From Apus apus (Eukaryota), in NCBI RefSeq assembly GCF_020740795.1, contig NC_067310.1, forward strand, positions 493,940 through 557,939: a stretch of DNA of 64,000 nt. Direction: 5' to 3'. This document shows positions 13,681 through 43,630 of this stretch, piece by piece. The position numbers and the translations under genes are program-made. Positions within the stretch are counted from its first letter, which is position 1. Every line of letters begins with the position of its first letter. The notes below the pieces were generated by a model. It was given only the letters and a program-made list of their open reading frames with translations, ran no database searches and was not told the origin of the DNA.

Positions 13681-13734
13681 ATGACATTTTGAGTGACTGC
13701 GCATGTCCTGAAGAACGGCAATCACCAGGCAGAA

Positions 13735-13850: not shown

Positions 13851-15029
13851 AAAGGACCCCGCGAGGACCCGGGCGCGCGTCTTGGTGGAGCGGTGACTCC
13901 TGACGTGCCCAGCGCTGTTTGCTCACTTACCTCAAATAAATAAATTAATTCTAAAATTTTTCTGGCTGTTTATTAGCCTATTACACTGGGCATGGTGAGT
14001 GGCTCTTTTCATGCCCCTCTGTGCAGGGGGGGAGGAACCAGTCCTGGAGCTGCTGGCTTGGACAGGAGACCCAGACTCCTGCAGCTTTGCAGGGAGAGAG
14101 GAACAGGTTTGTCAAGGCCCCTGAGAAAGTGCCTTCAGCCTTTCCTCTGCCTGCAGGAAGCACTGCCCTCAGCTCTGTGCTCTCCCCAGGGCTGATCTGG
14201 TCTCCTCTTCAGGAGTGGCCAGCACAGAGCTGCCCCTGGGCAGGGTCCTGCTGCCAGGAGGGCTCTGCAGGGCAGAGCTGAGCACAGGCTGGGTGGGATG
14301 GGGCTGTGAGCAGGGCCAGGGAGGAGAGGTGGGGACAGCTTCCAGCAGGAGCAGCTGCAGTCAGGTCCCTTCCCCGCAGCAAGCCCTTGGTCTCCTCTGC
14401 TCCACAGCAGAGCTCCTGGCTCCTGTTGTCATTTCAGTCTAGTTCTAGACACTCACAATAATTCCTAAAACACAGGGCCACCCCACCACCTTGTCTCCTT
14501 CCTTGTCTGTCTCTCCTGAAGAGCTGGCAGCCCTCAGCAGTGGCACTACAGCCCTGTGAGGGATCCCACCACGTTTCTGTGGAGCCACTGGGGCACAGTT
14601 TCCCTGCTGCATCAAGGCTTCCAGCTCTCCTTGTTTGTTGCCCAGGCTGCGTGGGTTGGTACAGATGCACTTCAGGTGGGTTCATGATCTTGACACCTTT
14701 TTGTGGGCACAGGCCCTAATTCCTGCCTGACCCTTCTCAGGTGTTTCCATGGCTGCTGGACCATCCATAACCCTTGCCTTTTGGCTTCCCATTCTATCTC
14801 TATCCCCCATCTCAACTCAGGTGGCAGGGCAAGAGTCTTGTCTCATTCCTACAAACCCCAGCACGCATCCCCTGGGCTCATTGAGAGGCTCAGTTTTATC
14901 CCCTTCCCCCTTCAAATCTCGTGTGAAGCTCTGTCCATGAGCCCTGCTAACTCCTGCCTGGGATCCTGTTCGCCCTCTGGGACAGCTGCATGCCATTTGT
15001 TGCCAGGCCTGGTGTCTTGTAGAGTAACC

Positions 15030-15600
15030 CATGATCAAAGAACCCAAAGCCCTGCCAATGACACCAGTGCATGGTGTGCCCAGCAGGACCAGGGAGGGGA
15101 TCCTGCCCCTCAACTTGACCTTGGTGAGGCTGCACCTCGAGCACTGGGGGCAGTTCTGGGCACCTCAGGATAGGAAGGACATGGAGGTGCTGGAGAGGGT
15201 GCAGAGAAGGGCAACGAGACTGATGAGGGGTCTGGAGAACAGGTCTTGTGAGGAAAGGCTGAGGGAGCTGGGGCTGTTCAGCCTGGAGAAGAGGTTGTAG
15301 TGCAGGGGCTGTTGGCCTCTTTTCCCTAGGGACTAGTGACAGGACAAGAGGAAATGGGATCAAGATGAGCCAGAAGAGGTTCACATGTGATATTAGGAAA
15401 CATTTATTCACAGAAGGAGTGGTGAGGCCTTGGAACAGGCTGCCCAGGGTGGTGGTGGAGGCACCATCCCTGGAGATGTTGAAAAAATGAGTGCAGGTGG
15501 TGTTACAGGAGATGGTTTAGTGATTAGGGTTTGTAGAGCTCATGGTTGGACTTGATGATCCTGAAGGTCTTTTTGAACTTTGATGATTCTCTGATTCTAT
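15030..15600 (+). mobile_element. CR1 LINE 3' part covering the RT C-terminus.
   Basis: The 15031-15300 ORF contains [53 protein letters not shown]. Confidence 0.85.
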
Positions 15601-15851
15601 AACATGGCAGTGCTGATGACCAGGGAGACCACGGCCAGGTGAGGGAGGCAAGTGGAAAAGGCTTTGTGCCTTCCCTGCTGAGAGGGGATGCTCAGCACGG
15701 CCCTGAAGATCTGCACATAGGACACCACCATGAAGACAAAGCATGAACAACTAAAAGAGGCACAGAATATGAGAAATCCAACTTCCCTGAGGTAGTCTGA
15801 GTGTGAGCAGGAGAGCTTGAGAATCTGGACGATGCCACACAAGAAGCTCAC
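15600..15851 (-). pseudogene. Olfactory receptor fragment covering TM5-TM6 only.
   Basis: Contains ILKLSCSHSDYLREVGFLIF...MVVSYVQIFRAVLSIPSQQGRHKAFSTCLPHLAVVSL. It is abutted by CR1 at 15600 and lacks both the N- and C-terminus. Confidence 0.85.
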
Positions 15852-16469
15852 AGCTCCTATCTATAGAAGGACTCTTCTCTCAGTCTTCCTGCTCTAGTGA
15901 GCTGTAGCAGACCTCCACTGAGACGCCTCCTGCCCCTGCCTTCCCTTTAACCCTGACCCATAAGCTCTGGGTCAGCTCCTCCTCCATCCCTAGGCAGAGC
16001 CCCATGGACTCCAACTGGTTACTGATGACACCCTCACCTCTCCTCCCCTGCCTGTCCTTCCTGAAGTTCTACCCATCCATTCCCGCGCTATAGTCCTAGG
16101 AGTCATCCCACCAGGAATCCCTTCTCAACCATCCCTGATGAATGTCCAGCAGCACCAGAAGGGTCTTAGCCCCAGCTGCCCAGCCTTGGCCTTGGCTGGT
16201 GAGCAGCCCCTGGTCCTGGCTGTAGAAGCCCTGCAGCAACCTGGCAGTGCCTGGGCCCCTGTCTATCAGCTGAGACCTTGAGCACTCCATGAGGAGGTCA
16301 TCTGCTCTCTCCTCTGTGTTTTTACACCACCTGCACCTGACTCTTCATCTTCTATGTTTGAGAGAACCAAGAAATAAACCTCAGAGAATCAAGCCTGGCA
16401 GATCTGAGAGAAGTGCTGGCAGGTGCAGCCACTTTTTGAGACCAAAGACATAATAGCCAGGAAAGAACT

Positions 16470-16855
16470 CATTATTCTCACAGGCTGAGAGAGTTGGGGT
16501 TGTTCATCCTGGAGAAGAGAAGGCTCATAGCACCTTCCCATGCCCGAAGGGGGCCTACAGGAAAGCTGGGGAGGGACTTTTGACAGGGCTTTGTAGTAAA
16601 AGGGCAAGAGGTAATGGATCCAAACTGGAAGAGGGGAGATGGAGGCGACACATCAGGAGGAAATTCTTCCCTGTGAGCCTGGTGAGACCCTGGCCCAGGT
16701 TGCCCAGGGAAGCTGTGGCTGCCCCATCCCTGGCAGTGTTGAAGGGCAGGTTGGATGGGGCTTGGAGCAGCCTGGAATGGTGGGAGGTGTCCCTGTGCAT
16801 GCAGAAGGTTGGATCTAGATGATCTTAAAGGTCCCTTCCAGCTGCTGTTGTTCCT
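16470..16855 (+). mobile_element. CR1 LINE 3' fragment.
   Basis: Encodes ...LGLFILEKRRL..., then RRKFFPVSLVRPWPRLPREAVAAPSLAVLKGRLDGAWSSLEW, and ends with a ggtcccttccagc terminus. Confidence 0.85.
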
Positions 16856-17838
16856 CATCATGAAGAAGAGGCACATCCCATTGTTGCTCTTGGTAGTGAT
16901 GGCAGCACCAGCTCTAACAGCTCTCTGAGAACTTTTTAATCTTTCCTCTGCTCCACAGCTCATGCTGCTCAGGCCCTGTGTGAGTCACCCTGAGCCTCTC
17001 CAACCATCATTCCTCCCAGCACCTTCCACAGATGGAAGCAGATCTCAGTGTCAATGTGTCCATGCAGGAAAGTTTCTGCAATCCAAGTGTGGAATGAGGA
17101 GAAATCCCTACCGACAGGGAAGGAGAGAAAGTGTCATCACATTTCCCACCCATGCCCAGGAACTCTGAACAACAAAATCCTGAGCATTTCTAGAAAACTA
17201 TACAAAAGCCTTGTTAAGCTCCTTGGTAAATAAGGAGAGAAACTGCACTGTGCATTTACTGGACAAGGATTTTTGCTCTTTAAAGGCATTTTTAATTTAA
17301 TTTTTGTTCCCAAAGAAGAGGTGACAGCAGCATTTCCCAGCTCAGATGGATCCAGATGGTCAGCAAAGGAGGTCTGGGCAGGTAGGAAAAGCAGTCTCCT
17401 TCATGGCCTACACTGCATGGACAACATTTCTCCTCTCCTCCCCAACCCCACCATGTCCCTTATCGCCCTCCTGGGACTTGCATAACTTCTCCTGACATCA
17501 GACTTCTCCACTGAACTGTGCAGCTGGATAGGACAGCTCCTTCACACCAGCTCCCACCTGCTTTCCTCCCAGTACTGCCTGCTCACAGACACAGGAGGAT
17601 TTCTCTCCATTGCCCACAAACACAGTCCTACCCATTATTTCATTCAGGAACCCTTGAACAACACACCTCAACTGAACGCTGAGTGTGAGCCAGACCTGCT
17701 GAGGTTGGTCTGGCACAGGACCATCCTCCAGGAGCTCTTTGAGACAGAGAGGTGGGGAAGGAGAGATAGAAACACAATGGCAGAGTTGGCTACAGAGACA
17801 CTGAGACAGACTACGGGGAGAAGAGAGATTTTAACTGT

Positions 17839-18708
17839 CTAAAGCTCAGAGTTGCAGCTCCTGAGCATCTTCAGCTTCTTCAGACAGTCTTGGAGCTCCT
17901 GGTTCCTCATGCCGTAGATGAGGGGGTTCACTGCTGGAGGCACCACTGAGTACAGAACTGGCACCACCAGGTCCAGGGATGGGGAGGAGATGGAGGGGGG
18001 CTTCAGGTAGGCAAACATGGCAGTGCTGATGACCAGAGAGACCACGGCCAGGTGAGGGAGGCAGATGGAAAAGGCTTTGTGCCTTCCCTGCTGAGAGGGG
18101 ATCCTCAGCACAGCCCTGAAGATCTGCACATAGGACACCACCATGAAGACAAAGAAGCCAAATCCTAAAAAGGCACCAAACACAAGGATCCCAACTTCCC
18201 TGAGGTAGGAGTGTGAGCAGGAGAGTTTGAGGATCTGGGGGATTTCACAGAAGAACTGTCCCAGGGCATTGCCCTGGCAGAGGGGCAGTGAAAATGTACT
18301 GGCTGTGTGCAGCAGAGCAGTGAGAAACCCAGAGGCCCAGGCAGCTGCTGCCATGTGGACACAAGCTCTGCTGCCCAGGAGGGTCCCGTAGTGCAGGGGT
18401 CTGCAGAACAAGACCTGTGCACCACATGCTGAGTAGGAGATGGCCCTGGTGTCCCAGAGGGAATTGGCCATGGCTTTGGGGAGGGTGGTGGAGATGCAGC
18501 CCAGGTCGAGGAGGGAGAGGTTGAGCAGGAAGAAGTACATGGGGGTGTGGAGGTGGTGGTCCCAGGCGATGGTGGTGATGATGAGGCCGTTGCCCAGGAG
18601 GGCAGCCAGGTAGATGCCCAGGAAGAGCCATAAGTGCAGGAGCTGCAGCTCCCGCCTGTCTGCGAATGCCAGGAGGAGGAACTGGCTGATGGAGCTGCTG
18701 TTGGACAT
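17839..18708 (-). pseudogene. OR14-like olfactory receptor with an in-frame deletion of about 28 aa that removes TM3 and the DRY motif.
   Basis: Otherwise nearly identical to OR1 and OR3. The protein reads YSACGAQVLF|CRPLHYGT, and FFLVFLGAEWSLLTIMCYDRYVAI is missing. In DNA this is an 84-bp gap at about 18415 compared with 7110-7210. Confidence 0.8.
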
Positions 18709-20639
18709 CCCAGCCCTTTCCTTATGAGGTGCTGCCAGAGGAGGAAAGCACATTCACAAGTCAGGACAGCCCTGAGGAAATCTCTTCCCATTCCCTCCCT
18801 TCACACCCCACCCTCTGAAAACAGACATTGTCTCCTTCTTACAGAACCTTCTTGGATCTCCCTGGCTGGAGCTCTGGACATGTGGGTCAAGTGTGCTGTG
18901 AGGAGCTGAGCTCCCAAGGAGCTCTCCCTGCTCCACAGCAGGGGGGAGCTGGGAAAAGTATGTCAGCTTCAAAAATACCCTCTTTTCCTCATCTGTGATC
19001 CACATGTGCATATTCCTGTAGGAGAACCTCCACGAAACTCCTACAGCTGTGGTGCCACCAGCAGAGCTGGCTGGTCCCAAGCCCTCCAGCCCAGCATGTC
19101 CAGAGAACCTCAGCTGGGCTGGGCCCAGCGGTTTTGCTGCCCTGGCCACAGCTGCCTGAGAGCTCCTGCAGAATCGGTGTCTGAGCTGCACCTTAGACAC
19201 CCTTGTCCTTAGGGAGCCTGAGGGGAAGGGCAAGGACAGCACAGGCAGCAGGGCCAGATGGAGAAATGCCCCGATGCTCCCAGTGAGGGAGGACAGGCAC
19301 CCTGAGGTGGCACTTGGACACTTCTCCTCCGCAGGGATCAAGCTGCTGAGCAGGTGACTCAGGCTGAGATCCCAGTGCCTTGGAGCCAGGAGCTCTGCTG
19401 TGGAGCAGAGGAGACCAAGGGCTTGCTGCGGGGAAGGGACCTGACTGCAGCTGCTCCTGCTGGAAGCTGTCCCCACCTCTCCTCCCTGGCCCTGCTCACA
19501 GCCCCATCCCACCCAGCCTGTGCTCAGCTCTGCCCTGCAGAGCCCTCCTGGCAGCAGGACCCTGCCCAGGGGCAGCTCTGTGCTGGCCACTCCTAAAGAG
19601 GAGACCAGATCAGCCCTGGGGAGAGCACAGAGCTGAGGGCAGTGCTTCCTGCAGGCAGAGGAAAGGCTGAAGGGACTTTCTCAGGGGCCTTGACAAACCT
19701 GTTCCTCTCTCCCTGCAAAGCTGCATGAGTCTGGGTCTCCTGTCCAAGCCAGCAGCTCCAGGACTGGTTCCTCCCCCCCTGCACAGAGGGGCATGCAAAG
19801 AGACACTCACCATGCCCAGGGCTGTGAAGATGTCTCCTTCAGTAGCTCTCAGCCGTCCTGCCCCTCCTGCCTGCCTTTATCCTCTCTCCCTGCCTGGCTC
19901 CTCTCCCCTGCTGCCTGCAGGCAGTGCCCTCAGCCCCTGCTGGGGCTCCTCTCCACAAGGCAGGCTCAGCTGCACACTCCAAACTTTCTGCAGCATTAAT
20001 GGGTCCCAGGGAGGACCATTACCAGGAAAGGCTGCACAGGGGCTGGTTAGAGCAGGAACCTGGAAGCACTCATGGCAGGCAGATAAAGGCCATGGCAAGG
20101 TGGCTCTGATGAGGCGTGAAGCTGAAGAAACCTCTCCAGAAGTCAGAGTCAGGTGCAAACTCCAGAGTTTCTTGCAGTCTGAAGGGGTCCCACTGAGGGA
20201 CATCCCTGACAAAGCTGCCTGGGCTCTGGTGAGAGCAGGAACCTGGAGGCCCTGCTGACAGGCAGGCAAAGGCAAGGACAAGATGGCTCTGAGGTGGAGT
20301 CAGCCTGGCTGGGTGAGATGATTCCAAGGTCTAAGCCCTGACCCAAAGGCCGTGGGAGAAGAGATCCTGCCCCTCACACGTTGCTCAGGGCTCTGCCCGG
20401 GCTCTGGGATGTGGGGATGTGCAGTGCCTGGAGCAGGACTAGGATACACTCTTTCTCAGGCTCACAGGCTGTGATGAGGAGCCCATGGAGTCCTTCTGCT
20501 CTCATGAGAAGGTGTCTCCTCGTAGGCAGCAGCTGCAGAGAGAAGCTCCACAGCCCAGGAGATCAAGACCTGGGCTGTCCCCACCACAGGATGTCCTACA
20601 GTGTCTGACTCCTGCAGCTCTTTCCCTGCAGGCTGTGGA

Positions 20640-20790
20640 CATCACCCTGCTTCCCAAACTGGCCACCCATTGTGATGTCATGGCCATACATCCCATTTAA
20701 GGCTCTACTGCCCCATGGTGATGTCATGGCCATACATCCCATTTAAGGCTCTACTGCCCCATTGTGATGTCATGGCCATACATGCCATAC
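20640..20790. repeat. Tandem repeat of about 45 bp, roughly 3 copies.
   Basis: ggctctactgccccat(t/g)gtgatgtcatggccatacatcccatttaa repeated. Other arrays of it are at 27110-27260, 40620-40830 and 47680-47800. Confidence 0.85.
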
Positions 20791-23205
20791 AAGGCCATAT
20801 AAAGACCTGAGGCCTGAACCAAAGAGGACCTCTAGAGGAATCTCACAACCCAGCTCTCTCTCTCTCTATATATATATTTTGATGACAATCTCTAAACACC
20901 TGGTGCAACACTTACTGTGTAGCTGTAACCAGCAGACAGATCTCTCTTTATTTAGAGGCACGCTGCAAGGACATGAAACCAGACATCTGGCCCTGAGGAG
21001 ACAGATGTAGATCAAGCCAAAATAGAGAGAAATACCACCCACCCACCCCCCTTTGGCCCAGCCAGTCACTAGACTGGTTTTGAAATGAGTCCCATTGTTT
21101 GACTCAAGTCTTCCTGGAAGGACCATCTCCTTCATTCCTTCTATTTAGCAGCCCTTGTACATGTCTCAGGAGAATAGCAGTGGGTTTATTGTCTCACGTT
21201 CTCATGTCCTCTTTGTAAGATCATACTAGAGAGACCACAGGTGGCATCCAAGTGGGTCCTGCCTCTCTTGCTGCTGTCTCCTAGCACGACGTGTCCCCTT
21301 CATGGCTGCAGCACCAGCCTTCCCATCTGTCAGGCATCTTATTCCTTCCCTTAGTCATTTCTTCCATGGCTGAGGTGTGGAACTGATGGGGATCAGAGAT
21401 CATGTCTCCATACTGTCGTGCTTTGAAAGCCACTTCACTCACAGTTGGTCTTTTGTAGTCACCAAATCATCCCCTGAAGGAGAACATCTGGGCACGTGCT
21501 GCTGGCACAGCCTGCACAGACCTCTGGAGCATTTGTGTGTGGCACAGAACGTCACCAGGATCTGTAACCCTTTGTTATCATAGATCACCTCTGGCACAGC
21601 CAGTTCTCTCAAACACGTGATGTCTCTCTCAAGAGTGGCTGTTCTGCTTCGGCGCCAGTCGATGTCACCCTTGTGGGGGTATCTCTGCCTCACAGCTGAA
21701 AGAAGTTGGCTCCACAGGCTGGTCGTTCCTGCCTTACTGCCAGCATCTCTGGCCAAGGGTCCCAACTGCCTGCCTTCTCTTTCGTCCATGTCAGAGATTT
21801 CAGCCCCACTATCAAAGCAGCAGAGCAACCAAGGCAGAAGTGGCTCCTCTTCATGGAGGGTCAAGTCCTTTCTCATGAGGTGCAGTTCCTTTAGAGAGAA
21901 AGGTTGGACAAGGTCATTGTTGTCATCTGCTTGAGAAGGGCCTGCTTGTCCATCTGCTTGAGAAGAATCTTCTCCATCACTCTCTTCCTGGTCCTGTGGA
22001 AGCTGTGGAGATTTCAGACAGGGATAAGGTCTGGGACCAGTTGTCTTTGCCTTTCCCTTGATGACAGGATGAACCTTTACTCACTGGATGAAGTGCAAGT
22101 GGCCTTGGTCTTTGCAGCAGCAGCAGCGGTGGCAGCAGCCTTGCCTGTGGGGGAGTGGCAGTGAGTGGAACAACATCTTGTTCTACCATCCACAGAACAT
22201 TCTAAACGTTCAGCAGAAGAATCCCTACTGAAACCTGCCATTCAGATCCAGAGCTGGGAGCTGGGAGAGGTAAAGCTGACCCTGCCATTACCAACATGGA
22301 CCTTTCTGTTCACATCAAAGCCCTTACTACACACTGCCACCCTATAGATCAGTATCAAAACCCCTGTGAGCACTAAATATCATCTCACAGGAGAGATTAT
22401 GGCTTTGGCTACAATCTTATAAATAAAAAACAATCATATACATAAACCAATCTTATATACATAAAAGAATCAGCAGGGCAGCTCCACAGAGTAGGATGAT
22501 CCCAGCTGCACATCACATGTACAACTGCATCTTGGGAAAAAGCTGCAGCAGAAACTTTGCCGGAAGTGTCTGTTCCGTTTTCAACCCATCAGTAGATTCA
22601 GCAGAAGTGCAGCCCGTTGCTACCTGAGGGATTCCTGCCATCAGAGCTGGAATTTTCAATATTCAGCAATTACTTTTGAGCCTGGGATACAGATTCAGCC
22701 CCACGTTTGGCACCAATAATTGCTGTCACGGTTTGACTCAGGATGGGAATGGAAATGGCCTTTGTCTAGACAGTCTGCACCTGGAAGGACAGCTTTAGAA
22801 AGGCCCCTTGTCTCATGACCACCAGGCAAAAATTTGTGTTGAGGCTCTGGACTTGGTTTCTTCCTTGTCCCTTCTTGAGGTAGCCAGGAGGTGTTGCAGA
22901 GTTTTCCTACAGTTGGTGTTGCTCATCCTCCCACCCACCCCCAAGAAGAGTCCTGACCCACAAGTGAGGGGTAGGATCTGCCTTCCTATTGCCTGGGGCT
23001 CAGAGTTTGGCCTCACTGCTTCATAGAATAAAGACATACTAAGAATTCTTAGCTTCAGAGCCACCTGCACAGGGACTTTGCCTCCCTGCAATCATAGCCT
23101 CCAATTACTTGCTCTAACGAGTCCCTGGGGAGGCTTTGTCAGCAATAGCCCTCAGTGGGGCCAATCACTGCTTCAAGGTATTTTCAGTTTTGCTTCTGGC
23201 TTCTT

Positions 23206-27109: not shown

Positions 27110-27260
27110 ACTTCATATGGCCTTGTATGGCATGGATGGCTATGACATCACAATGGGCAGTAGTGCCTTAAATGGGATGTATGGCTATGACATCACAATG
27201 GGCAGTAGTGCCTTAAATGGGATGTATGGCCATGACATCACAATGGGTGGCCAGTTTGGG
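27110..27260. repeat. Tandem repeat of about 45 bp. It is the inverted counterpart of the array at 20640-20790.
   Basis: catgacatcacaatgggcagtagtgccttaaatgggatgtatggc occurs three times. Confidence 0.85.
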
Positions 27261-27367
27261 AAGCAGGGTGATGTCCACAGCCTGCAGGGAAAGAGCTGCA
27301 GGAGTCAGACACTGTAGGACATCCTGTGGTGGGGACAGCTGGGGGCACAGCCATGGCTGAGAGCCCC

Positions 27368-28479
27368 TGTGGGAAACTGTTCTTTTCTTCCCCACATCAG
27401 TCTAAACAAAATGCCTTTTCAGCCAGCGAAGGCCTCTCCTGATTATCCCCAGCTAACGGACTAAAACAGACTTGCTTCTCAAGGACAACTGAACCCAAAA
27501 CAACAGATGTGGTCCGGGACAGAAAGGATGGGTGACAAGCCATCCTGTGCCCCTGGCAGTCACCGCCCTAACGTGGGGCTCATGGACGCTCGTTGGCTCT
27601 GGACAGTGACACTGACTGGACAGGTGGGTCAGGGGGTATCAAAGGGGCGAGGGCAGCAGGTGGGCCCTTCCCTCCTCCCTGAGGCCCGTTCGGACGCTTT
27701 CTGCCTGGGACACCCCCCTGCTGCGGACACTGGTGCTGGGACCCTGCCTGCCTGCCTGCCCCGGGTCCAGCCTGAGCCTCAGCGCCGAGCGTGCCGGGGT
27801 CCCGAGCCCTGGGGTCGGGGCCGGAGCCCCCTCCCCGTGTTGCTGCCCTGGAGGGGAAACCAGCGGCCGCTGCACCCGCTGCCGAGAGGCTGCCCCTCCG
27901 ACACCACGGACCTGCCGTCCTGCCTGGCCAGAAGGGGCCACCGACCAACCCTGCCGCTGGGAACGGAGCCTGGGGACAGGCTGGGGGTGACACCACCTCA
28001 CACACACACACACACACTCCTCTCCTCACACTTGCACACTCAGCGCGACCTCTCCAGCAGGACTGACATTGGGTTTCCTTCCCTCCTTCTTCCTCCCTTT
28101 GATCCTTAACCCTCTCTCTCAAAAGCTCAGGACCTCTTGCATCTCCCTATAGGACACTTGCTCACTCCATACATATTGATATCCCTGGTAGCCATTCACA
28201 CCTGCATTGTCCCTAAACATCATCCCTCGGTTTCTGTTAACCCTTAATAAACCGATCAGTTTGTGGAGCAAACCTTGGCTTCAGAGGCAATTTCTGAGCG
28301 TGGTGGGGTGGGGGGGCTTTCTAACTCCCCCCCTGAAACACGGTCCCGCGGTGGCCGTTCCTCCGTGAGAGGCAGCGCCGCGTGTGACCCTCGGGGTCAT
28401 TCACAAACCCCTCCACATTGAGAGGAGGAGTCGCAAAAGGATCCTGACAGCCGGGAGCCCCCGGTACCGGCTCGTGACA
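27368..28479 (+). mobile_element. Full-length solo-type LTR of about 1.1 kb, the same family as the provirus LTR.
   Basis: Starts TGTGGGAAACTG and ends GTGACA. It contains TTAATAAACC and (CA)n. The 15-bp satellite, not an internal proviral region, follows directly. Confidence 0.8.
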
Positions 28480-29206
28480 ATGTCATCCATTATGACATCA
28501 CCAACTATGACGTCACCAACTATGACATTACCTATTATTATGTCACCCATTATGATGTCATCCATTATGATGTCACCAACTATGCCACCTATTATGACAT
28601 CATCCATTATGATGTCACTAACTATGATGTCACCAACTATGACATCACCTATTATGATGTCATCCATTATGACGTCACCCATTATGATGTCACCAAGTAT
28701 TACGTCTTTTATTATGATGTCACCTATTATAATGTCACCCATTGTCACGTCTTTCATTATGATGTCACTGTCATCCCCCATCTGTCCTCCATAATGACAT
28801 CACACATGATGAAATCACCCATTATGATGCCACCCATTATGACGTCATCCATTAGGACACCACTCATTATAAGGTCATCCGTTATTACGTCACCCATGAT
28901 GACATCAACAACTATGACTTCACCCATTATGACGTCAGCCATTATAATGTCATCCGTTATGACATCACCAACTATCATATCACCCATTATGATGCCACCC
29001 ATTATGACAGCATCCATGATGACATCACCAACTATGATGTCACCCACTATGATGATGTCACCCATCATGATGTCACCCGTTACGATGCCACCCATTATGA
29101 CGTCACAATCTATGACATCACCCATTATGATGTCACCAACTATGACATCACCCATCATGACATCATCCATTATGACATCATCAACTATGATGTCAACCAT
29201 TATGAT
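28480..29206. repeat. 15-bp satellite array of about 48 units, consensus CCATTATGACGTCAC.
   Basis: Strict 15-bp periodicity. Units contain TGACGTCA or TGATGTCA. This gives the MTSPI/IMMSP pentapeptide ORFs seen on both strands. Confidence 0.95.
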
Positions 29207-29515
29207 GTGCAGATCTTCAGGGCTGTGCTGAGGATCCCCTCTCAGCATGGAAGGCACAAAGCCTTCTCCACCTGCCTCCCTCACCTGGCCGTGGTCTCTC
29301 TGGTCACCAGCACTGCCATGTTTGCCTACCTGAAGCCCCCCTCCATCTCCTCCCCATCCCTGGACCTGGTGGTGGCAGTTCTGTACTCAGTGGTGCCTCC
29401 AGCAGTGAACCCCCTCATCTACAGCATGAGGAACCAGGAGCTCAAGGACGCCCTCAGGAAAGTGATTTCTTCATTGGTCAAGAGTGAGAGATTTAAAGCC
29501 TCTTTCCACAAATGA
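29207..29515 (+). pseudogene. Olfactory receptor 3' fragment (TM6-TM7 to C-terminus) fused directly to the satellite.
   Basis: Reads IFRAVLRIPSQHGRHKAFSTCLPHL...PAVNPLIYSMRNQELKDALRKVISSLVKSERFKA. The 3' flank at 29520-29760 is homologous to the OR1 and OR3 3' flanks. Confidence 0.85.
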
Positions 29516-31846: not shown

Positions 31847-32536
31847 TGTGAGAAACTGCTCTTTTCTTCCCCACATCAGTCTAAACAAAATGCCTTTTCA
31901 GCCAGCGAAGGCCTCTCCTGATTATCCCCAGCTAACGAACTAAAACAGACTTGCTTTTCAAGGACAACTGAACCCAAAACAACAGCTGTGGCCCGGGACA
32001 GAAAGGATGGGCGACAAGCCATCCTGTGCCCCTGGCAGTCACCGCCTTAAAGTGGGGCTGATGGACGCTCGTTGGCTCTGGACAGTGACACTGACTGGAC
32101 AGGTGGGTCAGGGGGTATCAAAGGGGCGAGGGCAGCAGGTGGGCCCTTCCCTCCTCCCTGAGGCCCGTTCAGACGCTTTCTGCGTGGGACACCCCCCTGC
32201 TGCGGACACTGGTGCTGGGACCCTGCCTGCCTGCCTGCCCCGGGTCCAGCCTGAGCCTCAGCGCCGAGCGTGCCGGGGTCCCGAGCCCTGGGGTTAATCC
32301 TTAATAAACCGATCAGTTTGTGGAGCAAACCTTGGCTTTAGAGGCAATTTCTGAGCGTGGTGGGGTGGGGGTGCTTTCTAACTCCCCCCCTGAAATACGG
32401 CCCCGCGGTGGCCGTTCCTCTGTGAGAGGCAGCACCGCGTGTGACCCTCGGGCTCATTCACAAACCCCTCCACATTGGGAGGGGCAGTTGCAAAAGGATC
32501 CTGACAGCCGGGAGCCCTCGGTACCAGCTCGCGACA
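31847..32536 (+). mobile_element. LTR copy with an internal deletion of about 590 bp.
   Basis: The 5' 450 bp and the 3' 240 bp are homologous to the LTR at 27368-28479. The breakpoint is at about 32295 (gccctggggt|taatccttaataaacc). Confidence 0.8.
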
Positions 32537-33110
32537 GTGATGCCCCCATTATGATGTCAAATTATTGATGTCATACATTGGGATGTCACCCGTAATGGCA
32601 TCACCCATTATGACATCATCCATTATGACATCACCCATTTTGACGTCACCCATTAGGACATAATCCATTATGACGTCACCAACTATGACATCACCCATTA
32701 TGATGTCACCCATTATGATGTCATCTATTATGATGTCACCCATTGTGACATCCCCCATTATGACGTCACCCATTATGATGTCATCCATTATGACATCACC
32801 AACTATGACATCACCCATTATGACATAATCGATGATGACGTCACCAACTATGATGCCACCCATCATGACATCAACCCTTATGATGTCACCAACTATGACA
32901 TCACCCATCATGACATCAACCCTTATGATGTCAACCATTATGACATCATCAACTATGACGTCACCCATTATGCCATCACCATGGTGACATCCGCTATGAC
33001 ATCACCCCTTATTACGTCATTCATTATGATGTCACCAACTATGATGTCACCAACTATGATGTCACTAACTATGACGTCACCCATTATGACGTCACCCATT
33101 ACGTCATCCA
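32537..33110. repeat. 15-bp satellite array, second copy.
   Basis: Same unit as above. The junction (gcgacaGTGATGCCCCCATTATGATGTCAAATTATTGATGTCATACATTGGG) is nearly identical to the junction at 49015. Confidence 0.95.
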
Positions 33111-34970
33111 GCACCAGCTGACACTGCCCGTGGGGCACTAGTTGGGACCCACAACCCCTTCCAGCCACTCCAACGTGTCCTGTTTGCCTGTGGCAGCCTT
33201 CAGGATTTTCCTGCCTGTGATCTCTGGCTGGTGCAGGTTCAAGCTCGCCTTGCAGGCTTGGAAGGAGAGCATAGGAACGATGGTAAAGGCAGCCTGGCTC
33301 CCACCACCAGATGCCTGCTGGGGACCTGCCAGCAGTGGCTGCTGGGGCAGGGATGCAGGAGATGATGGGGCTGCAGCTCTGCAGAGCAGCAGCTGACTCC
33401 AGGCAGAGGGAGGCTCCATCACCCTCCCCTGCCCCCACTCGTGTCCTCCTTGGCACCCACCTGCTTGGATCTGACATTGAGCTGCACAGGCTGCACCAGG
33501 GAGAAATGCCACTTCTCACCCTTCTGCTGAAGCTGCCTCTCCTCGAGGATGTCCTGCTGCTGGAGCAGGGTGGCTCTGCTGGGATGCTCCAGGCTCTGCT
33601 CTCTGGAGGCCCCACGGCTCCTCTGCTGCACCTCCAGTTGCACCATCTGGACAGGCAGATGTTCCCCAGCAGCTCCAGGACCCACCCGCTGCTCTTGGAT
33701 GCTGGGCTGGCCCATGGTGCATGTCAACTGGTGCTCTGCCCCTGCTCGCCGGCCTCCTGCCCCTGCCTCCCTGCCCAGGGCAGCTGGCACGGGGGCCCTG
33801 TGGGCAGCTCTTGTGGTCCAAGGAGCACGGGGGGCAGCGGGCAGGGGCCGAGCCCCAGGGGCCCATCCACCCTCGGCTGCCCTGGCCGAGCTGCCCGCCC
33901 GGTCCCGCGATGCCACCGGCTGCTGGACGGGTCCCCAGCGCCCGCTGACAACCCTGCCAATGGCCTCCTGGGCTGGGGCCCAGGCTGTGTCCTGCCCGGC
34001 TGGGGCAGAGGCTGCAGGGCTGGACAGGACAGGTCTCCAGCTCTGGGCCCTGGGGCGTCTGCCCCGCTCAGCCCAGATGCCCCCAGCAGACGGGACGGGC
34101 TGTCGGTCGCTGCTGGATGTGCCCCTGGCAGGGGGTGCAGGGGGCAGAGGGGGCAGCCTGGGGGAGGTGGTGGCAGCTCTTGGGTGCCAAGCTGCAGGTG
34201 CCTGCCCTGGTGCTGCTGCCTCGCTGAGGAGCAGTGGCAGGGATGGCTGATGGGCCATCCCCTCCTGCAGGGCCAGCCTGCCCGGCTGCAAGAGGAGCCG
34301 AGGAGAGAGGCCGTGGGAGCGGGACCTCTGTGCCCGCAGCCCCCGTGTCCCCGCTGGGACGGCTCCTGTGCCCGGGCTCCCCTCTCCTCCTGCCCTGCTC
34401 CTCTTCTGCCGCCTCTGCTGCAGGCCTGGCAGCTCTTTGCTGAGCTGAGAACGGGCCTTCTCCTTCTCCATGGACATCTTGGCTGTCCTCTGCTGGAGAC
34501 GTGCCACGGGTGTCCAGGGGAGCTGCTGCCTCCTGAGGGAGATGCTCTCCTGGGAGTGGGCACCCCACGGCTTGGGTTCCTTAGATACCCCCTGGTCCCC
34601 ATGCAGACCCATCACAGCAGTGTCCGGGCAACAGGCAGTGCATCACAGAGGCCTGGGGGTGGCTGTGGAGACGCCCACCCCTCACCTGCTGGGACCAGCT
34701 GGACCCACCTGATGGGAAGGCGCGCGGCGCGGCCAGGAGCCGCTCCCCTTCCTGCACACAGCGACCTCCTGCCCTTGGGGCAGGAAATCCGCACCTGGAA
34801 AAGGGCTCCACAGGAGCAGCTCCTCCTCCTCCCAGCAAGCAGTAATCCAGCTGAATTAGAGACTTCAGGGTTAAACTGGCCAAACCCAGATGGTGCTGAA
34901 TAGTAGAATCTGTTCCTGCTGGTCACAAGTGCTGTGCTGAACTGGGCTGTGTCTCCCGCAGAGCCCAAGC
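33110..34970. other. Very GC-rich block with long overlapping ORFs on both strands, which I take to be compositional artefacts. It could be a CpG island or an unidentified GC-rich exon.
   Basis: A 530-aa (+) ORF and a 398-aa (-) ORF overlap. Their translations are P/G/A/R-rich low-complexity sequence with no recognisable domain. Confidence 0.5.
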
Positions 34971-35869: not shown

Positions 35870-36531
35870 ATCCATGGGGGGGCTTCCCGGGAACCGGGGC
35901 GACCCCTCCCAGCAGCAGCAGCTGCGGCAAGCACGGCTCTAGTCCCGAAGCAGATGACAAACGCAGGCTGGGCAAGCTCCTACTTTGGTCTGGTTTGGTT
36001 CAGGCTGGGCAGGCAGGGTCCCCGGGGAGCGGGCACAGGTGCCCCCCTTTCCCCTTCTCCAGGCAGCGGTCGTGGGGCAGCCCCCCCTTCCCTCTCGGCT
36101 CCTCTGGACAGTGGGGCTGGCGTTCCAGGGGCTTCTGGTGCTGCAGCAGGGTCTCCTGCAGGTTCCCATGGCTTCTGGTGCTGCAGCAGGGTCTCCTCCT
36201 GGGCAGGCAGAGAGCACCGGCCTGCAGATCTTGCCCTCTTTTATAGATCAGAAATCACTGTTTGACAAAGTACCTCTGTTCAAATTAGCCAATTAGCACT
36301 GGCCAGGTATGTCCTCTGTTAGAGGCATCTTTAACCTATTGTCCATTCTTCTGCCAGTTATCAGAACTCTTATGCTCTTTTCTTGCTGTGGACTTATCTG
36401 CTAGAGCAAGGGGCCTGTTCCAGTCTATCCTAGGATAAATCAGCAAAAAGACACCACTCTTGCTTTGCTGGCTTGAAAGGCATTTTATTTAGTCGGATGT
36501 GCGGGGAGAGAAAATGGACCGTTCCCCACCA
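35870..36531 (-). mobile_element. U3 fragment of a diverged LTR subfamily, the same subfamily as 49517-50484.
   Basis: Homologous to 49860-50470. The reverse complement of its end (TGGTGGGGAACGG...CCGACTAAATAAAATGCCTTTCAAGCCAGCAAAG) aligns with the canonical LTR 5' start TGTGGGAAACTGTTC...CAGTCTAAACAAAATGCCTTTTCAGCCAGCGAAG. Confidence 0.6.
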
Positions 36532-38311
36532 TATGTCCTTTGGAAAAAGAGGCAGGCCACTCAGGGTGAATATAAGGATATTCTGAGGCTATGCGGGGAG
36601 AAAATCAGAAGGGCCAAATCCCAATTTGAAATCAACCTGGCTGCAGCTGTCAAAGCTGAAAAGAAACACGTCTATAAATTATATCGCCCCAGAAGAAGTC
36701 AAGATAAAGGACGAGTTTGCTAAGGTAGATGAGGATTGGGTTAGGGATCAGTTGAGTAGTCTGGACATCCATAAATTGATGGGTCCAGATGGAATGCATC
36801 CAAGGGTGCTGAGGGAGCTGGCAGAGGTCATTGCTAGTCCACTCTCCATCATCTTCGGTAAGTCATGGGTAACAGGAGAGGTGCCTGAGGACTGGAGGAT
36901 AGCAAACGTCACTCCAGTCTACAAGAAGGGCAAGAAGGAGGACCCGGGTAACTATAGACCGGTCAGCCTCACCTCCATCCCTGGAAAGGTGATGGAACAA
37001 CTTGTCCTTGGCACTATCTCTAGGCATATCAAGGACATGGGGGTCATCAAGAGCAGTCAACATGGTTTTACCAAGGGTAAGTCATGTTTGACTAACCTTA
37101 TAGCCTTCTATGAGGAAATTACTAGGTGGATAGATGATGGTAGAGCGGTGGATGTGGTCTATCTTGATTTCAGTCAAGCATTTGACACCGTCTCCCACAG
37201 CATCCTTGTAGATAAGTTGATCAAGTATGGGTTTGATGATCAGGCAGTGAGGTGGATCAAGAACTGGTTGAAAGGAAGAAGTCAGAGAGTTGTAGTCAAT
37301 GGGGCAGAATCTAGTTGGAGGCCTGTGACTAGTGGAGTCCCTCAGGGGTCGGTACTGGGACCGGTGTTGTTCAACATCTTCATCAACGACCTGGATGAGG
37401 GTACAGAATGTACCCTCAGCAAGTTTGCTGATGACACCAAGCTGGGAGGAGTTGCTGACACACCAGAAGGCTGTGCTGCCATTCAGAGAGACTTAGACAG
37501 GCTGGAGACTTGGGCGGGGAAAAACCTGATGAAGTTCAACAAGGGCAAGTGTAGAGTTTTGCATTTGGGGAAGAAAAATGTCATGCACCAGTACAGGTTG
37601 GGGGCTGACCTGCTGGAGAGCAGTGTAGGTGAAAGGGATCTGGGGGTCCTGGTGGACAGGAGGATGACCATGAGCCAGCAATGTGCCCTTGTGGCTAAGA
37701 AGGCCAATGGCATCCTGGGGTGCATTAGAAGGGGTGTGGTTAGTAGGTCAAGAGAGGTTCTCCTCCCCCTCTGTTCTGCATTGGTGAAGCCGCATCTGGA
37801 ATATTGTGTCCAGTTCTGGGCCCCTCAGTTCAAGAAGGACAGGGAACTGCTTGAAAGAGTCCAGCGCAGAGCCACAAAGATGATTAAGGGAGTGGAACAT
37901 CTGCCTTATGAGGAAAGGTTGAGGGAGCTGGGTCTCTTTAGTTTGGAGAAAAGGAGACTGAGGGGGTGACCTCATCAATGTTTACAAATACGTAAAGGGT
38001 GAGTGTCAAGAAGATGGAGTTAAGCTTTTTTCAGTGATGACCAGTGATAGGACAAGGAGTAATGGATACTGATTGGAGCATAGGAGGTTTAAGGTGAATA
38101 TCAGAAAATTTTTTTTTACTGTGAGAGTGACAGAGCACTGGAACAGGCTGCCCAGAGAGGTTGTGGAGTCTTCTTCACTGGAGACATTCGAAACCCGCCT
38201 GGACGCATTCCTGTGTGATGTACTATAGGTGACCCTGCTCTGGCAGGGGGGTTGGACTAGATGATCTTTCGAGGTCCCTTCCAACCCCTAGGATTCTATG
38301 ATTCTATGATC
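36532..38311 (+). mobile_element. CR1 LINE, 5'-truncated at about 1.8 kb, with an open RT ORF and the 3' (ATTCTATG)n tail.
   Basis: The ORF at 36626-37969 contains [66 protein letters not shown] and [10 protein letters not shown]. It ends ccttccaaccccctaggATTCTATGATTCTATG. Confidence 0.92.
36626..37969 (+). CDS. CR1 ORF2 reverse-transcriptase domain. 447 aa open, N-terminally truncated.
   Basis: Carries the RT motifs listed for the CR1 copy at 36532-38311, including the FADD box. Confidence 0.85.
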
Positions 38312-39480: not shown

Positions 39481-40619
39481 TGTTTGACTCAGGTCTGACA
39501 ACAACTCTCCTGATCCCCTTCCCCTCCCACCCAGGTAGGGAAAGAGAGAGAGAAAAAGAGAGAGACTTGGCTGGATTGAAAACTAAACTACACAACGTTA
39601 ATTAAACACTAATGAGAAAAGAAAATATATACAATTACATATGTTTAGTTATCTGCAAAAGCCTCTCTCCTCCCCGCACCCCAGCAACTCCCACAGCATC
39701 TCCTGAGCTGGAACAGTCCCGAGAAATCCCAAAGGGCTGCTGGAGAAAGCGGAGAGTGATGAGGGTCAGGAGAGCTGGAGCCTGGGGGTCCACGGGGAGG
39801 GAGGGACGGAGTCCTCCCCGGACGCTGGCCACAGGTGGAGAAGGGAAGAAGAAGCAGGAAGGAAGTTGTCTTGTGTGATTTCTGTGCTTCCCCTGAGCTC
39901 ACGTAGCTCTCTGGAATGGAAGATCTCAGGCCAGTTTTGCTGTCTGTCTCACTCAGCCTCCTCCGGGGGGGTCAGAGATCTCCCTGTACCGTCTGAGCCG
40001 GCAGAGTGAAGGTGCAACCTTGAAGCCCCAGCAGTTAGAGAAACATTGCACTGTTGTCAGTGCTAGTTGGAACACTCTGCTGCTAGTTAAAAGAACGCTT
40101 CCTGAAGGGGAAAAAAAAAGAGTAAAAGGAAAATTGCCCTAATCCTGGTTCAAACCAGGGCTATCTCCCAGCTCTGGATCTGAATGGCAGGTTTCAGTAG
40201 GGATGCTTCTGCTGAATGTTTAGAATGTTCTGTGGATGGTAGAACAAGATGTTGTTCCACTCACTGCCACTCCCCCACAGGCAAGGCTGCTGCCACCGCT
40301 GCTGCTGCTGCAAAGACCAAGGCCACTTGCACTCCATCCAGTGAGTAAAGGTTCATCCTGTCATCAAGGGAAAGGCAAAGACAACTGGTCCCAGACCTTA
40401 TCCCTGTCTGAAATCTCCACAGCTTCCACAGGACCAGGAAGAGAGTGATGGAGAAAATACTTCTCAAGCAGATGGAGGAGCAGGCCCTTCTCAAGCAGAT
40501 GACAATGATGACCTTGTCCAACCTTTCTCTCTAAAGGAACTGCACCTCATGAGAAAGGACTTCACCCTCCATGAAGATGAGCCACTTAGTTGGTTTCTCA
40601 GACCTCAGTACCTCAGTAC

Positions 40620-40830
40620 CTCAGACATCACAATGGGGCAGTAGAGCCTTAAATGGGATCTATGGCCATGACATCACAATGGGGCAGTAGAGCTTTAAAT
40701 GGGATGTATGGCCAAGACATCACAATGGGGCAGTAGAGCCTTAAATGGGATGTATGGCCATGACATCACAATGGGAGCAGTAGAGCCTTAAATGGGATGT
40801 ATGGCCGTGACATCACAATGGGTGGCCAGT
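40620..40830. repeat. Tandem repeat of about 45 bp, roughly 5 copies.
   Basis: catcacaatggggcagtagagccttaaatgggatgtatggccatgaca repeated. Confidence 0.85.
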
Positions 40831-42715
40831 TTGGGAAGCAGGGTGATGTCCACAGCCTGCAGGGAAAGAGCTGCAGGAGTCAGACACTGTAGGACATCCT
40901 GTGGTGGGGACAGCTGGGGGCAGAGCCATGGCTGAGAGCCCCCAGCCCAGGTCTTGATCTCCTGGGCTGTGGAGCTTCTCTCTGCAGCTGCCTACGAGGA
41001 GACACCTTCTCATGAGAGCAGAAGGACTCCATGGGCTCCTCATCACAGCCTGTGAGCCTGAGAAAGAGTGTATCCCAGTCCTGCTCCAGGCACTGCACAT
41101 CCCCACACCCCAGTGCCCGGGCAGAGCCCTGAGCAATGTGTGAGGGGCAGGATCTCTTCTCCCACGGCCTTTGGGTCAGGGCTTGGACCTTGGAATCATC
41201 TCACCCAGCCAGGCTGACTCCACCTCAGAGCCATCTTGTCCTTGCCTTTGCCTGCCTGTCAGCAGTTTGCACCTGACTCTGGCTTCTGGAGAGGTTTCTT
41301 CAGCTTCACTCCTCATCAGAGCCACCTTGCCATGGCCTTTCTCTGCCTGCCATGAGTGCTTCCAGGTTCCTGCTCTAAGCAGCCCCTGTGCAGCCTTTCC
41401 TGGTAATGGTCCTCCCTGGGACCCATTAATGCTGCAGAAAGTTGGGAGTGTGCAGCTGAGCCTGCCTTGTGGAGAGGAGCCCCAGCAGGGGCTGAGGGCA
41501 CTGCCTGCAGGCAGCAGGGGAGAGGAGCCAGGCAGGGAGAGAGGATAAAGGCAGGCAGGAGGGGCAGGACGGCTGAGAGCTACTGAAGGAGACATCTTCA
41601 CAGCCCTGGGCATGGTGAGTGTCTCTTTCCATGCCCCTCTGTGCGGGGAAGAGGAACCAGTCCTGGAGCTGCTGGCTTGGACAGGAGACCCAGACTCCTG
41701 CAGCTTTCCAGGGAGAGAGGAACAGGTTTGTCAAGGCCCCTGAGAAAGTGCCTTCAGCCTTTCCTCTGCCTGCAGGAAGCACTGCCCTCAGCTCTGTGCT
41801 CTCCCCAGGGCTGATCTGGTCTCCTCTTCAGGAGTGGCCAGCACAGAGCTGCCCCTGGGCAGGGTCCTGCTGCCAGGAGGGCTCTGCAGGGCAGAGCTGA
41901 GCACAGGCTGGGTGGGATGGGGCTGTGAGCAGGGCCAGGGAGGAGAGGTGGGGACAGTTTCCAGCAGGAGCAGCTGCAGTCAGGTCCCTTCCCCGCAGCA
42001 AGCCCTTGGTCTCCTCTGCTCCACAGCAGAGCTCCTGGCTCCAAGGCACTGGGATCTCAGCCTGAGTCACCTGCTCAGCAGCTTGATCCCTGCGGAGGAG
42101 AAGTGTCCAAGTGCCACCTCAGGGTGCCTGTCCTCCCTCACTGGGAGCATCAGGGCATTTCTCCATCTGGCCCTCCTGCCTCTGCTGTCCTTGCCCTTTC
42201 CCTCAGGCTCCCTAAGGACAAGGGTGTCTAAGGTGCAGCTCAGACACCGATTCTGCAGGAGCTCTCAGGCAGCTGTGGCCAGGGCAGCAAAACCGCTGGG
42301 CCCAGCCCAGCTGAGGTTCTCTGGACATGCTGGGCTGGAGGGCTTGGGACCAGCCAGCTCTGCTGGTGGCACCACAGCTGTAGGAATTTCGTGGAGGTTC
42401 TCCTACAGGAATATGCACAAGTGGATCACAGATGAGGAAAAGAGGGTATTTTTGAAGCTGACATACTTTTCCCAGCTCCCCCCTGCTGTGGAGCAGGGAC
42501 AACTCCTTGGGAGCTCAGCTCCTCACAGCACACTTGACCCACATGTCCAGAGCTCCAGCCAGGGAGATCCAAGAAGGTTCTGTAAGAAGGAGACAATGTC
42601 TGTTTTCAGAGGGTGGGGTGTGAAGGGAGGGAATGGGAAGAGATTTCCTCAGGGCTGTCCTGACTTGTGAATGTGCTTTCCTCCTCTGGCAGCACCTCAT
42701 AAGGAAAGGGCTGGG

Positions 42716-43630
42716 ATGTCCAACAGCAGCTCCATCAGCCAGTTCCTCCTCCTGGCATTCGCAGACAGGCGGGAGCTGCAGCTCCTGCACTTATGGCTCT
42801 TCCTGGGCATCTACCTGGCTGCCCTCCTGGGCAACGGCCTCATCATCACCACCATCGCCTGGGACCACCACCTCCACACCCCCATGTACTTCTTCCTGCT
42901 CAACCTCTCCCTCCTTGACCTGGGCTGCATCTCCACCACCCTCCCCAAAGCCATGGCCAATTCCCTCTGGAACACCAAGGCCATCTCCTATTCAGCATGT
43001 GCTGCACAGGTCTTGTTCTTTTTATTCTTCATCATAGCAGAGTGGTATCTTCTCACCATCATGTGCTATGACCGCTACGTGGCCATCTGCAGACCCCTGC
43101 ATTACGGGACCCTCCTGGGCAGCAGAGCTTGTGTCCACATGGCAGCAGCTGCCTGGGCCTCTGGGTTTCTCAATGCTCTGCTGCACACAGCCAGTACATT
43201 TTCACTGCCCCTCTGCCAGGGCAATGCCCTGGGACAGTTCTTCTGTGAAATCCCCCAGATTCTCAAGCTCTCCTGCTCACACTCCTACCTCAGGGAAGTT
43301 GGGATTCTTGTGGTTAGTCTCTTTTTAGGTTTTGGCTGTTTTGTCTTCATGGTGGTGTCCTATGTGCAGATCTTCAGGGCCGTACTGAGGATCCCCTCTC
43401 AGCAGGGAAGGCACAAATCCTTCTCCACCTGCCTCCCTCACCTGGCCGTGGTCTCCCTGGTCACCAGCACTGTCCTGTTTGCCTACCTGAAGCCCCCCTC
43501 CATCTCCTCCCCATCCCTGGACCTGGTGGTGGCAGTTCTGTACTCAGTGGTGCCTCCAGCAGTGAACCCCCTCATCTACAGCATGAGGAACCAGGTGCTC
43601 AAGGATGCCCTCAGGAAAGTGATTTCTTAA
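42716..43630 (+). CDS. Olfactory receptor of the OR14-like avian-expanded clade. Intact, 304 aa.
   Basis: Paralogue of OR1 with all motifs present: MCYDRYVAICRPLHY, KSFSTCLPHL and PAVNPLIYSMRNQ. The stop is at 43628-43630. The upstream region is the same as for OR2. The downstream region is the same as for OR1. Confidence 0.9.
   Translation: MSNSSSISQFLLLAFADRRELQLLHLWLFLGIYLAALLGNGLIITTIAWDHHLHTPMYFFLLNLSLLDLGCISTTLPKAMANSLWNTKAISYSACAAQVLFFLFFIIAEWYLLTIMCYDRYVAICRPLHYGTLLGSRACVHMAAAAWASGFLNALLHTASTFSLPLCQGNALGQFFCEIPQILKLSCSHSYLREVGILVVSLFLGFGCFVFMVVSYVQIFRAVLRIPSQQGRHKSFSTCLPHLAVVSLVTSTVLFAYLKPPSISSPSLDLVVAVLYSVVPPAVNPLIYSMRNQVLKDALRKVIS

Follow-up and report, generated by a model that had tools for sequence, protein, structure and literature searches.

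A 15-bp minisatellite joined to the end of an ERV-L-like long terminal repeat in an olfactory receptor block of Apus apus

Tandem repeats arise inside or beside retrotransposons with long terminal repeats (LTRs), plant Ty3 elements being an example, and minisatellites of the variable-number-tandem-repeat type, with units of 11–60 bp, are found in subtelomeric or duplication-rich DNA. The LTRs of HTLV-1 and BLV carry three imperfect, conserved 21-bp repeats, the Tax-responsive elements, which contain the cyclic AMP response element (CRE) and lie inside U3, upstream of the promoter. Among birds, a centromeric satellite seeded by a transposable element has been proposed in the snowy owl (bioRxiv 10.1101/2024.07.05.602039; PMC13625412). 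The gamma-c olfactory receptor (OR) blocks of birds have been described as repeat-rich and LTR-dense, with about 50% GC, successive duplications and a probably heterochromatic state (bioRxiv 10.64898/2026.05.04.721007). Here we describe a locus of Apus apus that touches on all of these systems. It lies in a stretch of 64,000 bp (assembly GCF_020740795.1, contig NC_067310.1, positions 493,940 to 557,939 of the forward strand), called the window below; all coordinates are positions within it. Three LTRs of one endogenous retrovirus (ERV) family, termed LTR-A, run directly into arrays of a 15-bp repeat whose unit contains a CRE-like octamer. An initial annotation, made from the letters alone, had drawn attention to this arrangement and had asked whether the arrays were seeded by the provirus or could recruit transcription factors. 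Judged from its sequence, this lineage-specific minisatellite on the end of an ERV-L-like LTR appears to be an ordinary repeat mosaic and not a regulatory device.

Three junctions of LTR and array

The direct passage from LTR to array was confirmed in all three places. The LTR copies lie on the same strand and end in ...GYGACA at 28479, 32536 and 49015, with the array starting at the next base. The first copy, c1 (27368-28479, +), is 1112 bp long and reads TGTG...GACA; it was delimited by alignment of the LTRs, by homology of its 5' end to a related element (LTR-B, described below) and by the 3' motif at 28463-28479, and it has an AATAAA signal near 28247. Array A1 (28480-29208, +) follows it with 49 units, as established by Tandem Repeats Finder (TRF), cyclic alignment of the units and octamer counts. 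The second copy, c2 (31847-32536, +), has an internal deletion of about 420 bp and is followed by A2 (32537-33108, +; 39 units by TRF and cyclic alignment). The third, c3 (47909-49015, +; LTR alignment and 3' end motif), is followed by A3 (49016-49444, +; 30 units), the right end of which abuts a 14-mer satellite. In the 64-kb window TRF called the arrays at 28480-29208, 32545-33101 and 49065-49444; reading the sequence and aligning it to the cyclic consensus, which takes in the degenerate first units, gave full spans of 729, 572 and 429 bp. Together the arrays hold about 118 units (49 + 39 + 30).

The motif that closes the LTR, GGTACCRGCYYGYGACA, occurs five times in the window against an expectation of 0.11. 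Three of these occurrences lead directly into the arrays, one leads into the primer-binding site (PBS) of a provirus, and one, that of LTR-B (49517, minus strand), leads into the 14-mer satellite. At the other end, LTR-A starts with TGTGGG at 27368, 31847 and 47909, and the start TGTG[GA]G[GA]AAC is also shared by LTR-B; the LTR extent implied by the initial annotation was therefore too short. The 207 bp upstream of 27574 were considered as a shared host flank, which would have proved a segmental duplication. This idea was rejected because the 207 bp are homologous to the start of LTR-B and thus form the true 5' part of the LTR.

On their right sides the composites have nothing in common: A1 is followed by an OR fragment, A2 by unique GC-rich DNA and A3 by the 14-mer satellite. 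The OR fragment (29205-29515, +) is the 3' part of an OR14-type gene, recognized by alignment with three paralogs, by an open reading frame (ORF) at 29207-29515 and by a Pfam 7tm_4 match on a paralog. The break in the gene falls at about codon 230, and a 4-bp ATGT microhomology links the fragment to A1.

The arrays themselves record a shared history. The junctions at 32536 and 49015, which had been noted earlier as nearly identical, are followed in A2 and A3 by the same five aberrant units (GTGATG-CC, CCCATTATGATGTCA, A[A/G]TTATTGATGTCA, TACATTGGGATGTCA and CCC[G/A]TAATGGCATCA), with only 2 differences in 67 bp. Further into the arrays, positions 28693-28830 of A1 match 49155-49315 of A3, with the same peculiar units following one another in the same order, for example ...GTCT TTTATTATGATGTCA CCT[A/C]TTATAATGTCA CCCATTGTCAC[G/A]TCT TTCATTATGATGTCA, and also CACATGATGAAATCA. 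The first five units of this block show 4 differences in 75 bp by hand count, about what the LTR identity of 96–97% between c1 and c3 would give. Because the arrays share ordered, position-specific unit variants, they go back to one ancestral LTR/array junction and not to three separate origins: A1, A2 and A3 are of common descent. The proposal that LTR and array were copied as a unit, with the array length changing afterward, is thus upheld. So too, as far as the window reaches, is the alternative that the initial annotation had set against its own reading, namely a single accident that was later duplicated.

In the final 244 bp of the LTR, the informative sites agree with the tree ((c1,c3),c2). 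On this tree the c2/c3 type of junction is the ancestral one, and the first units were lost from c1 afterward. In a short part of c3 (48228-48322), seven C-to-T changes that are private to this copy are packed into 100 bp, most of them at CpG, which indicates heavy local CpG decay.

The explanation that we favor, with a probability of roughly 0.6, is that a single LTR/array junction was multiplied by duplication and conversion at the DNA level, and that the locus is an ordinary mosaic of minisatellite and LTR in which the CRE palindromes have decayed. A 15-bp minisatellite with the ancestral unit CCCATTATGACGTCA would, on a single occasion, have become attached to the U5 end of an ERV-L-like LTR within a gamma-c OR block. 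This junction would then have reached three copies through segmental duplication together with ectopic recombination or gene conversion between LTR copies, with no retrotransposition involved, and LTRs that had inserted independently would have recombined with an array-carrying LTR to give the pattern of left flanks. The arrays would subsequently have gained and lost units by slippage or unequal exchange, A1 would have become attached to the broken OR gene by way of the 4-bp microhomology, and methylation in the germ line would have caused the central CpG of most units to decay to TG or CA.

How the composites were copied

Comparison of the LTR copies segment by segment reveals discordant levels of identity. 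Between c1 and c3 there is not a single difference over 477 bp (27210-27686 = 47751-48227), a tract that spans the junction of left flank and LTR, whereas outside it there is about one difference per 20 bp. The tract is a recent gene-conversion patch across that junction. Likewise, c1 and c2 are 98.8% identical in the second U3 segment (27574-27815) and 93.9% identical in the last 244 bp. Such a mosaic speaks directly for gene conversion or ectopic recombination between the LTR copies, and it points to segmental duplication accompanied by LTR-LTR conversion as the way in which they were made.

A perfect 477-bp tract inside sequence that is otherwise about 96% identical could also betray mis-joined or collapsed repeats, and the many microhomology junctions would suit such an origin; another of them joins a broken, partial LTR-A of 347 bp (47221-47567, +) to the left flank of c3 via GTCCT. 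OR blocks of this kind are, moreover, known to be hard to assemble (bioRxiv 10.64898/2026.05.04.721007). An assembly error would not, however, yield graded divergence, and the composites differ in their flanks, LTR substitutions, internal deletion and array content, all in accord with one coherent tree. We thus give very little credence to the idea that the pattern is even partly an artefact.

The one provirus in the window provides the standard against which the composites can be judged. Its 5' LTR (2876-3752, -) belongs to the LTR-A family, with the first 207 bp absent or different. Two nucleotides past the LTR end (motif at 2876-2892) there is an 18-nt PBS, TGGTGTCAGAAGTGGGAT (2856-2873, -), a perfect and unique match to what we take to be the complement of the 3' end of tRNA-Leu(CAA); the initial annotation had likewise named a tRNA-Leu PBS. 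On this assignment, the PBS is of the tRNA-Leu type that marks ERV-L-like (class III) ERVs; the proviral pol lies outside the window. The family's only provirus in the window thus has a normal PBS and no array. Around the PBS (2795-3075, -), a stem that pairs GGCAAUCUCUGAGCGUGG of R/U5 with its complement immediately 3' of the PBS encloses U5 and the PBS, with a minimum free energy of -127.6 kcal/mol (z -5.3) for the fold. This predicted long-range stem resembles the U5-leader stem of retroviruses.

None of these features accompanies the composites. A scan of the window, with up to 3 mismatches allowed, found no PBS at any of them, array sequence standing in its place, and they also lack the 3' arm of the U5-leader stem; they are therefore not functional proviral 5' ends. 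There is no 3' LTR and no target-site duplication (TSD) after any of the three arrays. Nor do the pentamers that flank the LTRs form the TSD of a simple solo LTR: the left pentamer of c1 and c3 is GCCCC and the right one ATGTC or GTGAT, and for c2 the pair is GAAGT and GTGAT. The lack of PBS, TSD and 3' LTR argues against retrotransposition of the composites.

The left flank of c1 and c3 consists of a degraded integrase-like fragment and a 46-bp repeat, and that of c2 is an old CR1 fragment. The window holds an LTR-free paralog of the c1/c3 flank, or "empty site," at 40823-40962 (+), whose homology to c1 breaks off at 40942/40943, at the precise point where the LTR of c1 begins; a second such paralog has its breakpoint at 20577/20578. 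These two empty paralogs alone carry on into CAGCCCAGGTCTTGATCTCC, the continuation of the left target, which is never seen after the LTRs or arrays. A putative TSD or GCCCCCA remnant at the c2/c3 junction was dismissed, since the unit sequence by itself accounts for the 7 bp that resemble the empty site.

These flanks speak for a different history, in which a non-autonomous but mobile ERV derivative, with LTR and array at its 5' end and the array as its internal or leader region, would have been retrotransposed to at least two sites. Two distinct left junctions fall precisely on the first base of the LTR, the c1/c3 flank has its LTR-free paralogs (40942/40943 and 20577/20578), and a 5' LTR would be expected to lack a TSD directly after it. 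Yet such a derivative should have a PBS between LTR and array and a leader arm able to pair with U5, and it should be closed by a 3' LTR or a TSD, where the three arrays instead have unrelated right flanks. The family's provirus in the window has an ordinary PBS and no array, and the mosaic identity shows that exchange at the DNA level took place between these very copies. We consider retrotransposition of a mobile derivative unlikely.

LTR-B serves as a control for an ordinary junction of LTR and satellite. This related solo LTR (49517-50484, -) lies in the 14-mer satellite, begins TGTGGGGAAC... immediately after satellite DNA, and has a 5-bp TSD, CCCTA, on both sides, in a region where CCCTA recurs every 7 bp. 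Its CA end sits directly on the satellite together with that TSD, so an LTR that touches a tandem repeat has the look of an ordinary integration. A third LTR of a related family is older and truncated (35870-36529, -); it shares 65% identity with LTR-B and is found 2.8 kb past A2, oriented the other way.

Decay of the octamer and source of the unit

The initial annotation had assigned a CRE-type octamer to each unit, amounting to some 120 CRE-like sites. This was an overcount: the intact octamer TGACGTCA, the full CRE palindrome, is present in 16 of the ~118 units, and the variants TGATGTCA and TGACATCA in 29 and 23 (52 together). In the 100 units without gaps, the middle of the octamer reads CG 21 times, TG 40 times, CA 34 times and TA once. 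Were the two positions independent, 14.9 units with TA would be expected in place of the one observed (Fisher p 2.5e-10). The central CpG has accordingly been lost in about 79% of these units, with TG and CA mutually exclusive. Since TG and CA are alternative deamination products that exclude each other, the ancestral unit was CCCATTATGACGTCA, with TGACGTCA as its core; it held a perfect CRE palindrome and an ATGACGT heptamer. The distribution of CG, TG, CA and TA carries what reads as the signature of methylated-CpG decay and would imply that the arrays were methylated in the germ line over a long time.

Methylation of the CpG in a CRE blocks the binding of CREB. The CpG decay, together with the survival of only 16 palindromes, argues against a maintained ATF/CREB platform, and we infer that the arrays are probably not kept as binding sites for these factors and serve no such function. 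The idea of functional clusters that bind ATF/CREB-type basic leucine zipper (bZIP) proteins, acting as an enhancer of the LTR or OR genes or as a nucleator of heterochromatin or recombination, may draw on the perfect palindrome and heptamer of the ancestral unit, on the conservation of the non-CpG octamer positions (0.89–0.95) and on the presence of three arrays within 21 kb of OR genes. It is nonetheless distinctly improbable: few units retain TGACGTCA, the exclusivity of TG and CA speaks for long-term germ-line methylation of a kind known to abolish CREB binding, the arrays lie downstream of U5 and outside the promoter-bearing U3, and neither copy number nor sequence is conserved among the paralogs. 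The working bZIP/CRE array that had been envisaged earlier thus finds no support. Just as improbable, on the sequences at hand, is a broader version in which LTR-A and its array would be a mobile or recombinogenic composite that spreads CRE/ATGACGT-type palindromes across the OR block of the swift, to serve as bZIP-bound enhancers or as promoters of recombination in OR turnover.

By size and organization the arrays are minisatellites. Their period of 15 bp falls in the range of 11–60 bp, the units are arranged head to tail, and the copy number varies from 30 to 49 between paralogs. At 429–729 bp they are far from the tens of kilobases to megabases of satellite DNA, and the term satellite used for them at first was not borne out for arrays of 0.4–0.7 kb. 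The spacer between octamers varies largely in unit subtypes (CCCATTA, TCCATTA, CCAACTA and CCTATTA) that alternate loosely every 3–4 units. Open frames on both strands of the array result from a unit length that is a multiple of 3 and from the scarcity of stop codons; the array ORF had no homologs in protein databases and no Pfam matches. A unit dimer gave 0 matches among viral contigs and one two-unit match, attributed to chance, among metagenome contigs, and searches of the literature for the 15-mer and 14-mer strings returned nothing relevant. A search for bacterial sigma-70 promoters yielded 27 sites against 2.1 expected, nearly all of them within the array at 28480-29208. These are an artefact, meaningless in a bird, which arises because the tandem units of A1 mimic TTGACA-16 nt-TATAAT.

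Where the unit came from can be approached through its relatives in the window. At non-CpG positions the units diverge from their consensus by about 9–13%, and the LTR copies differ among themselves by 2–9%; the array is therefore at least as old as the LTR copies. A tandem repeat of 45/46 bp (27120-27247, +; TRF and unit scan), situated 120 bp upstream of c1, holds TGACATCACAATGGG, which is identical at 14/15 positions to the inverse of the 15-mer. Paralogous repeats lie at 20666-20795, 40624-40822 and 47666-47788, and outside the arrays every match in the window to any rotation of the unit (≤2 mismatches) falls in these four repeats. The match, CCCATTGTGATGTCA, is 14/15 and reaches 17/18 in an edge copy. 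That a longer repeat shares the core, as was first remarked, is correct, and the likeness extends over a full unit in inverse orientation. Five shuffles produced 2, 0, 0, 0 and 0 hits at the 14/15 level; a single match of this quality is thus not rare, and the kinship with the 46-bp repeat is suggestive, not proven. The unit is oriented opposite to the 46-bp repeat that lies 120 bp upstream of c1 and c3, for which we have no explanation. The repeat is bordered by a decayed ORF that resembles integrase; its Pfam rve matches (E 2.7e-3 and 7.2e-4) do not reach the curated cut-off.

The other candidate source is the provirus, whose PBS or leader could have been amplified in tandem. Position lends this some appeal, in that the array starts 1 nt and the PBS 2 nt past the LTR end, and the first eight bases of the PBS, TGGTGTCA, agree with the common variant TGATGTCA at 7/8 positions. 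With the ancestral core TGACGTCA, however, the agreement drops to 6/8, and over the other 7 nt of the unit it is 1/7. The 46-bp repeat is closer (14/15, and 17/18 at its edge), and the diversity of the units exceeds the divergence of the LTRs. A birth of the array from the PBS or leader is, in our judgment, very improbable, and the seeding from proviral leader entertained in the initial annotation is unsupported. Microhomology with the PBS as the cause of the junction was likewise set aside as weak, for the same core match and since the dinucleotide after the LTR end was not retained. The comparison suggests that the 15-mer is related to the 46-bp repeat more than to the PBS or leader, and the array may well predate the LTR as DNA of the host, or of an old ERV fragment, related to that repeat.

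Several observations weigh against the explanation by a single, DNA-level multiplication of a pre-existing minisatellite junction. Two different left flanks, that of c1/c3 and that of c2, both stop at the first base of the LTR; our account needs recombination between LTRs to produce this, and a transposing LTR-plus-array would be expected to look the same. No LTR-free array of the 15-mer is present in the window, so the pre-existence of the array is deduced and not seen. Finally, the non-CpG octamer positions are slightly better conserved than the spacer (about 0.92 vs. 0.82 as hand averages; 0.89–0.95 vs. 0.68–0.91 per position in the cyclic unit alignment).

Genomic setting and comparison with known systems

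The composites are embedded in a duplication-rich gamma-c (OR14) block beside a large 14-mer satellite, a setting that matches published gamma-c blocks of birds. The window contains several OR14-type (gamma-c) genes (Pfam 7tm_4, E 1.8e-48), whose best database matches are Apus apus proteins at 90–93% identity. Two arms of an inverted segmental duplication, 3406-22260 and 40165-47567, are 95–99% identical, with OR14 paralogs on both; a further OR gene sits in an additional 11-kb insert of the left arm. The satellite, (TAGGGTTAAGGGTC)n, begins at 49453 and runs off the end of the window at 64000 (TRF). Its 14-mer consists of two telomere-like heptamers, higher-order periods of 98, 112 and 126 bp are apparent, and it is interrupted by LTR-B and by a CR1 copy. 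ORFs for CR1 reverse transcriptase are present in the window; those at 36626-37969 (+) and 54148-55453 (-) encode near-identical proteins, which suggests a recently active CR1 or another duplication. A GC-rich region at 33311-34903 contains long open frames on each strand, the longest of 530 aa, and lacks a paralog in the window; it could represent a CpG island or host exons.

Past its PBS, the provirus has a first ORF (1683-2765, -) of 360 aa, encoding a heptad coiled-coil specified by a 21/42-bp tandem repeat (2176-2371). It had no database homolog and no Pfam family above the cut-off, and the second ORF (573-1577, -; 334 aa) had no Pfam family above the cut-off either. We considered whether the element is chicken ENS-1/ERNI with its Soprano LTR. 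The published ENS-1 primers were not found in the window with 3 mismatches allowed; for this reason, and because no homologs of the coiled-coil ORF turned up and the OR genes, with Apus apus as their nearest match, point to Apodiformes and not to Galliformes, that identity was rejected.

The locus shows in detail how duplication, conversion and microhomology joins mix LTRs, minisatellites and satellites in a gamma-c OR block of a bird. It also cautions against reading function into a repeat unit on the strength of a conspicuous palindrome for a transcription factor, and counting CG, TG, CA and TA at the center of the palindrome is a quick test. The locus would matter more should the array prove to move together with its LTR into unrelated places of the genome, or should the arrays turn out to be unmethylated and bound.

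Among described systems, the MARB gamma-c block of willow warblers (bioRxiv 10.64898/2026.05.04.721007) comes closest in setting. It shares with our window a GC content of about 50%, a high density of OR14-type genes, the presence of LTR elements, enlargement through successive duplications and a proposed heterochromatic state; it belongs to another bird lineage, and no 15-mer is reported there. The tandem CRE-like motifs tied to a retroviral LTR recall the 21-bp repeats of HTLV-1 and BLV, but here 30–49 units lie outside the LTR, downstream of U5, and their CpG has mostly decayed. With satellites linked to retroelements the locus has in common an array tied to a retroelement, and a unit that may derive from a degraded ERV fragment (the 46-bp repeat and the integrase-like ORF); it departs from them in that the arrays are shorter than 1 kb and the family's only provirus in the window has none.

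The copying of the composites comports with what is seen in TSD-less LTRs generated by recombination between elements: the LTRs are complete (TG...CA), their flanks are not those of one target, no TSD is present, and the copies are mosaics of recombination or conversion. In our case the recombination event is deduced from the copies. The arrays, for their part, behave as minisatellites do, with 30–49 units of 15 bp set head to tail, loose higher-order unit subtypes and changes in length between paralogs. What distinguishes them from other minisatellites is that every copy here is attached to the end of an LTR.

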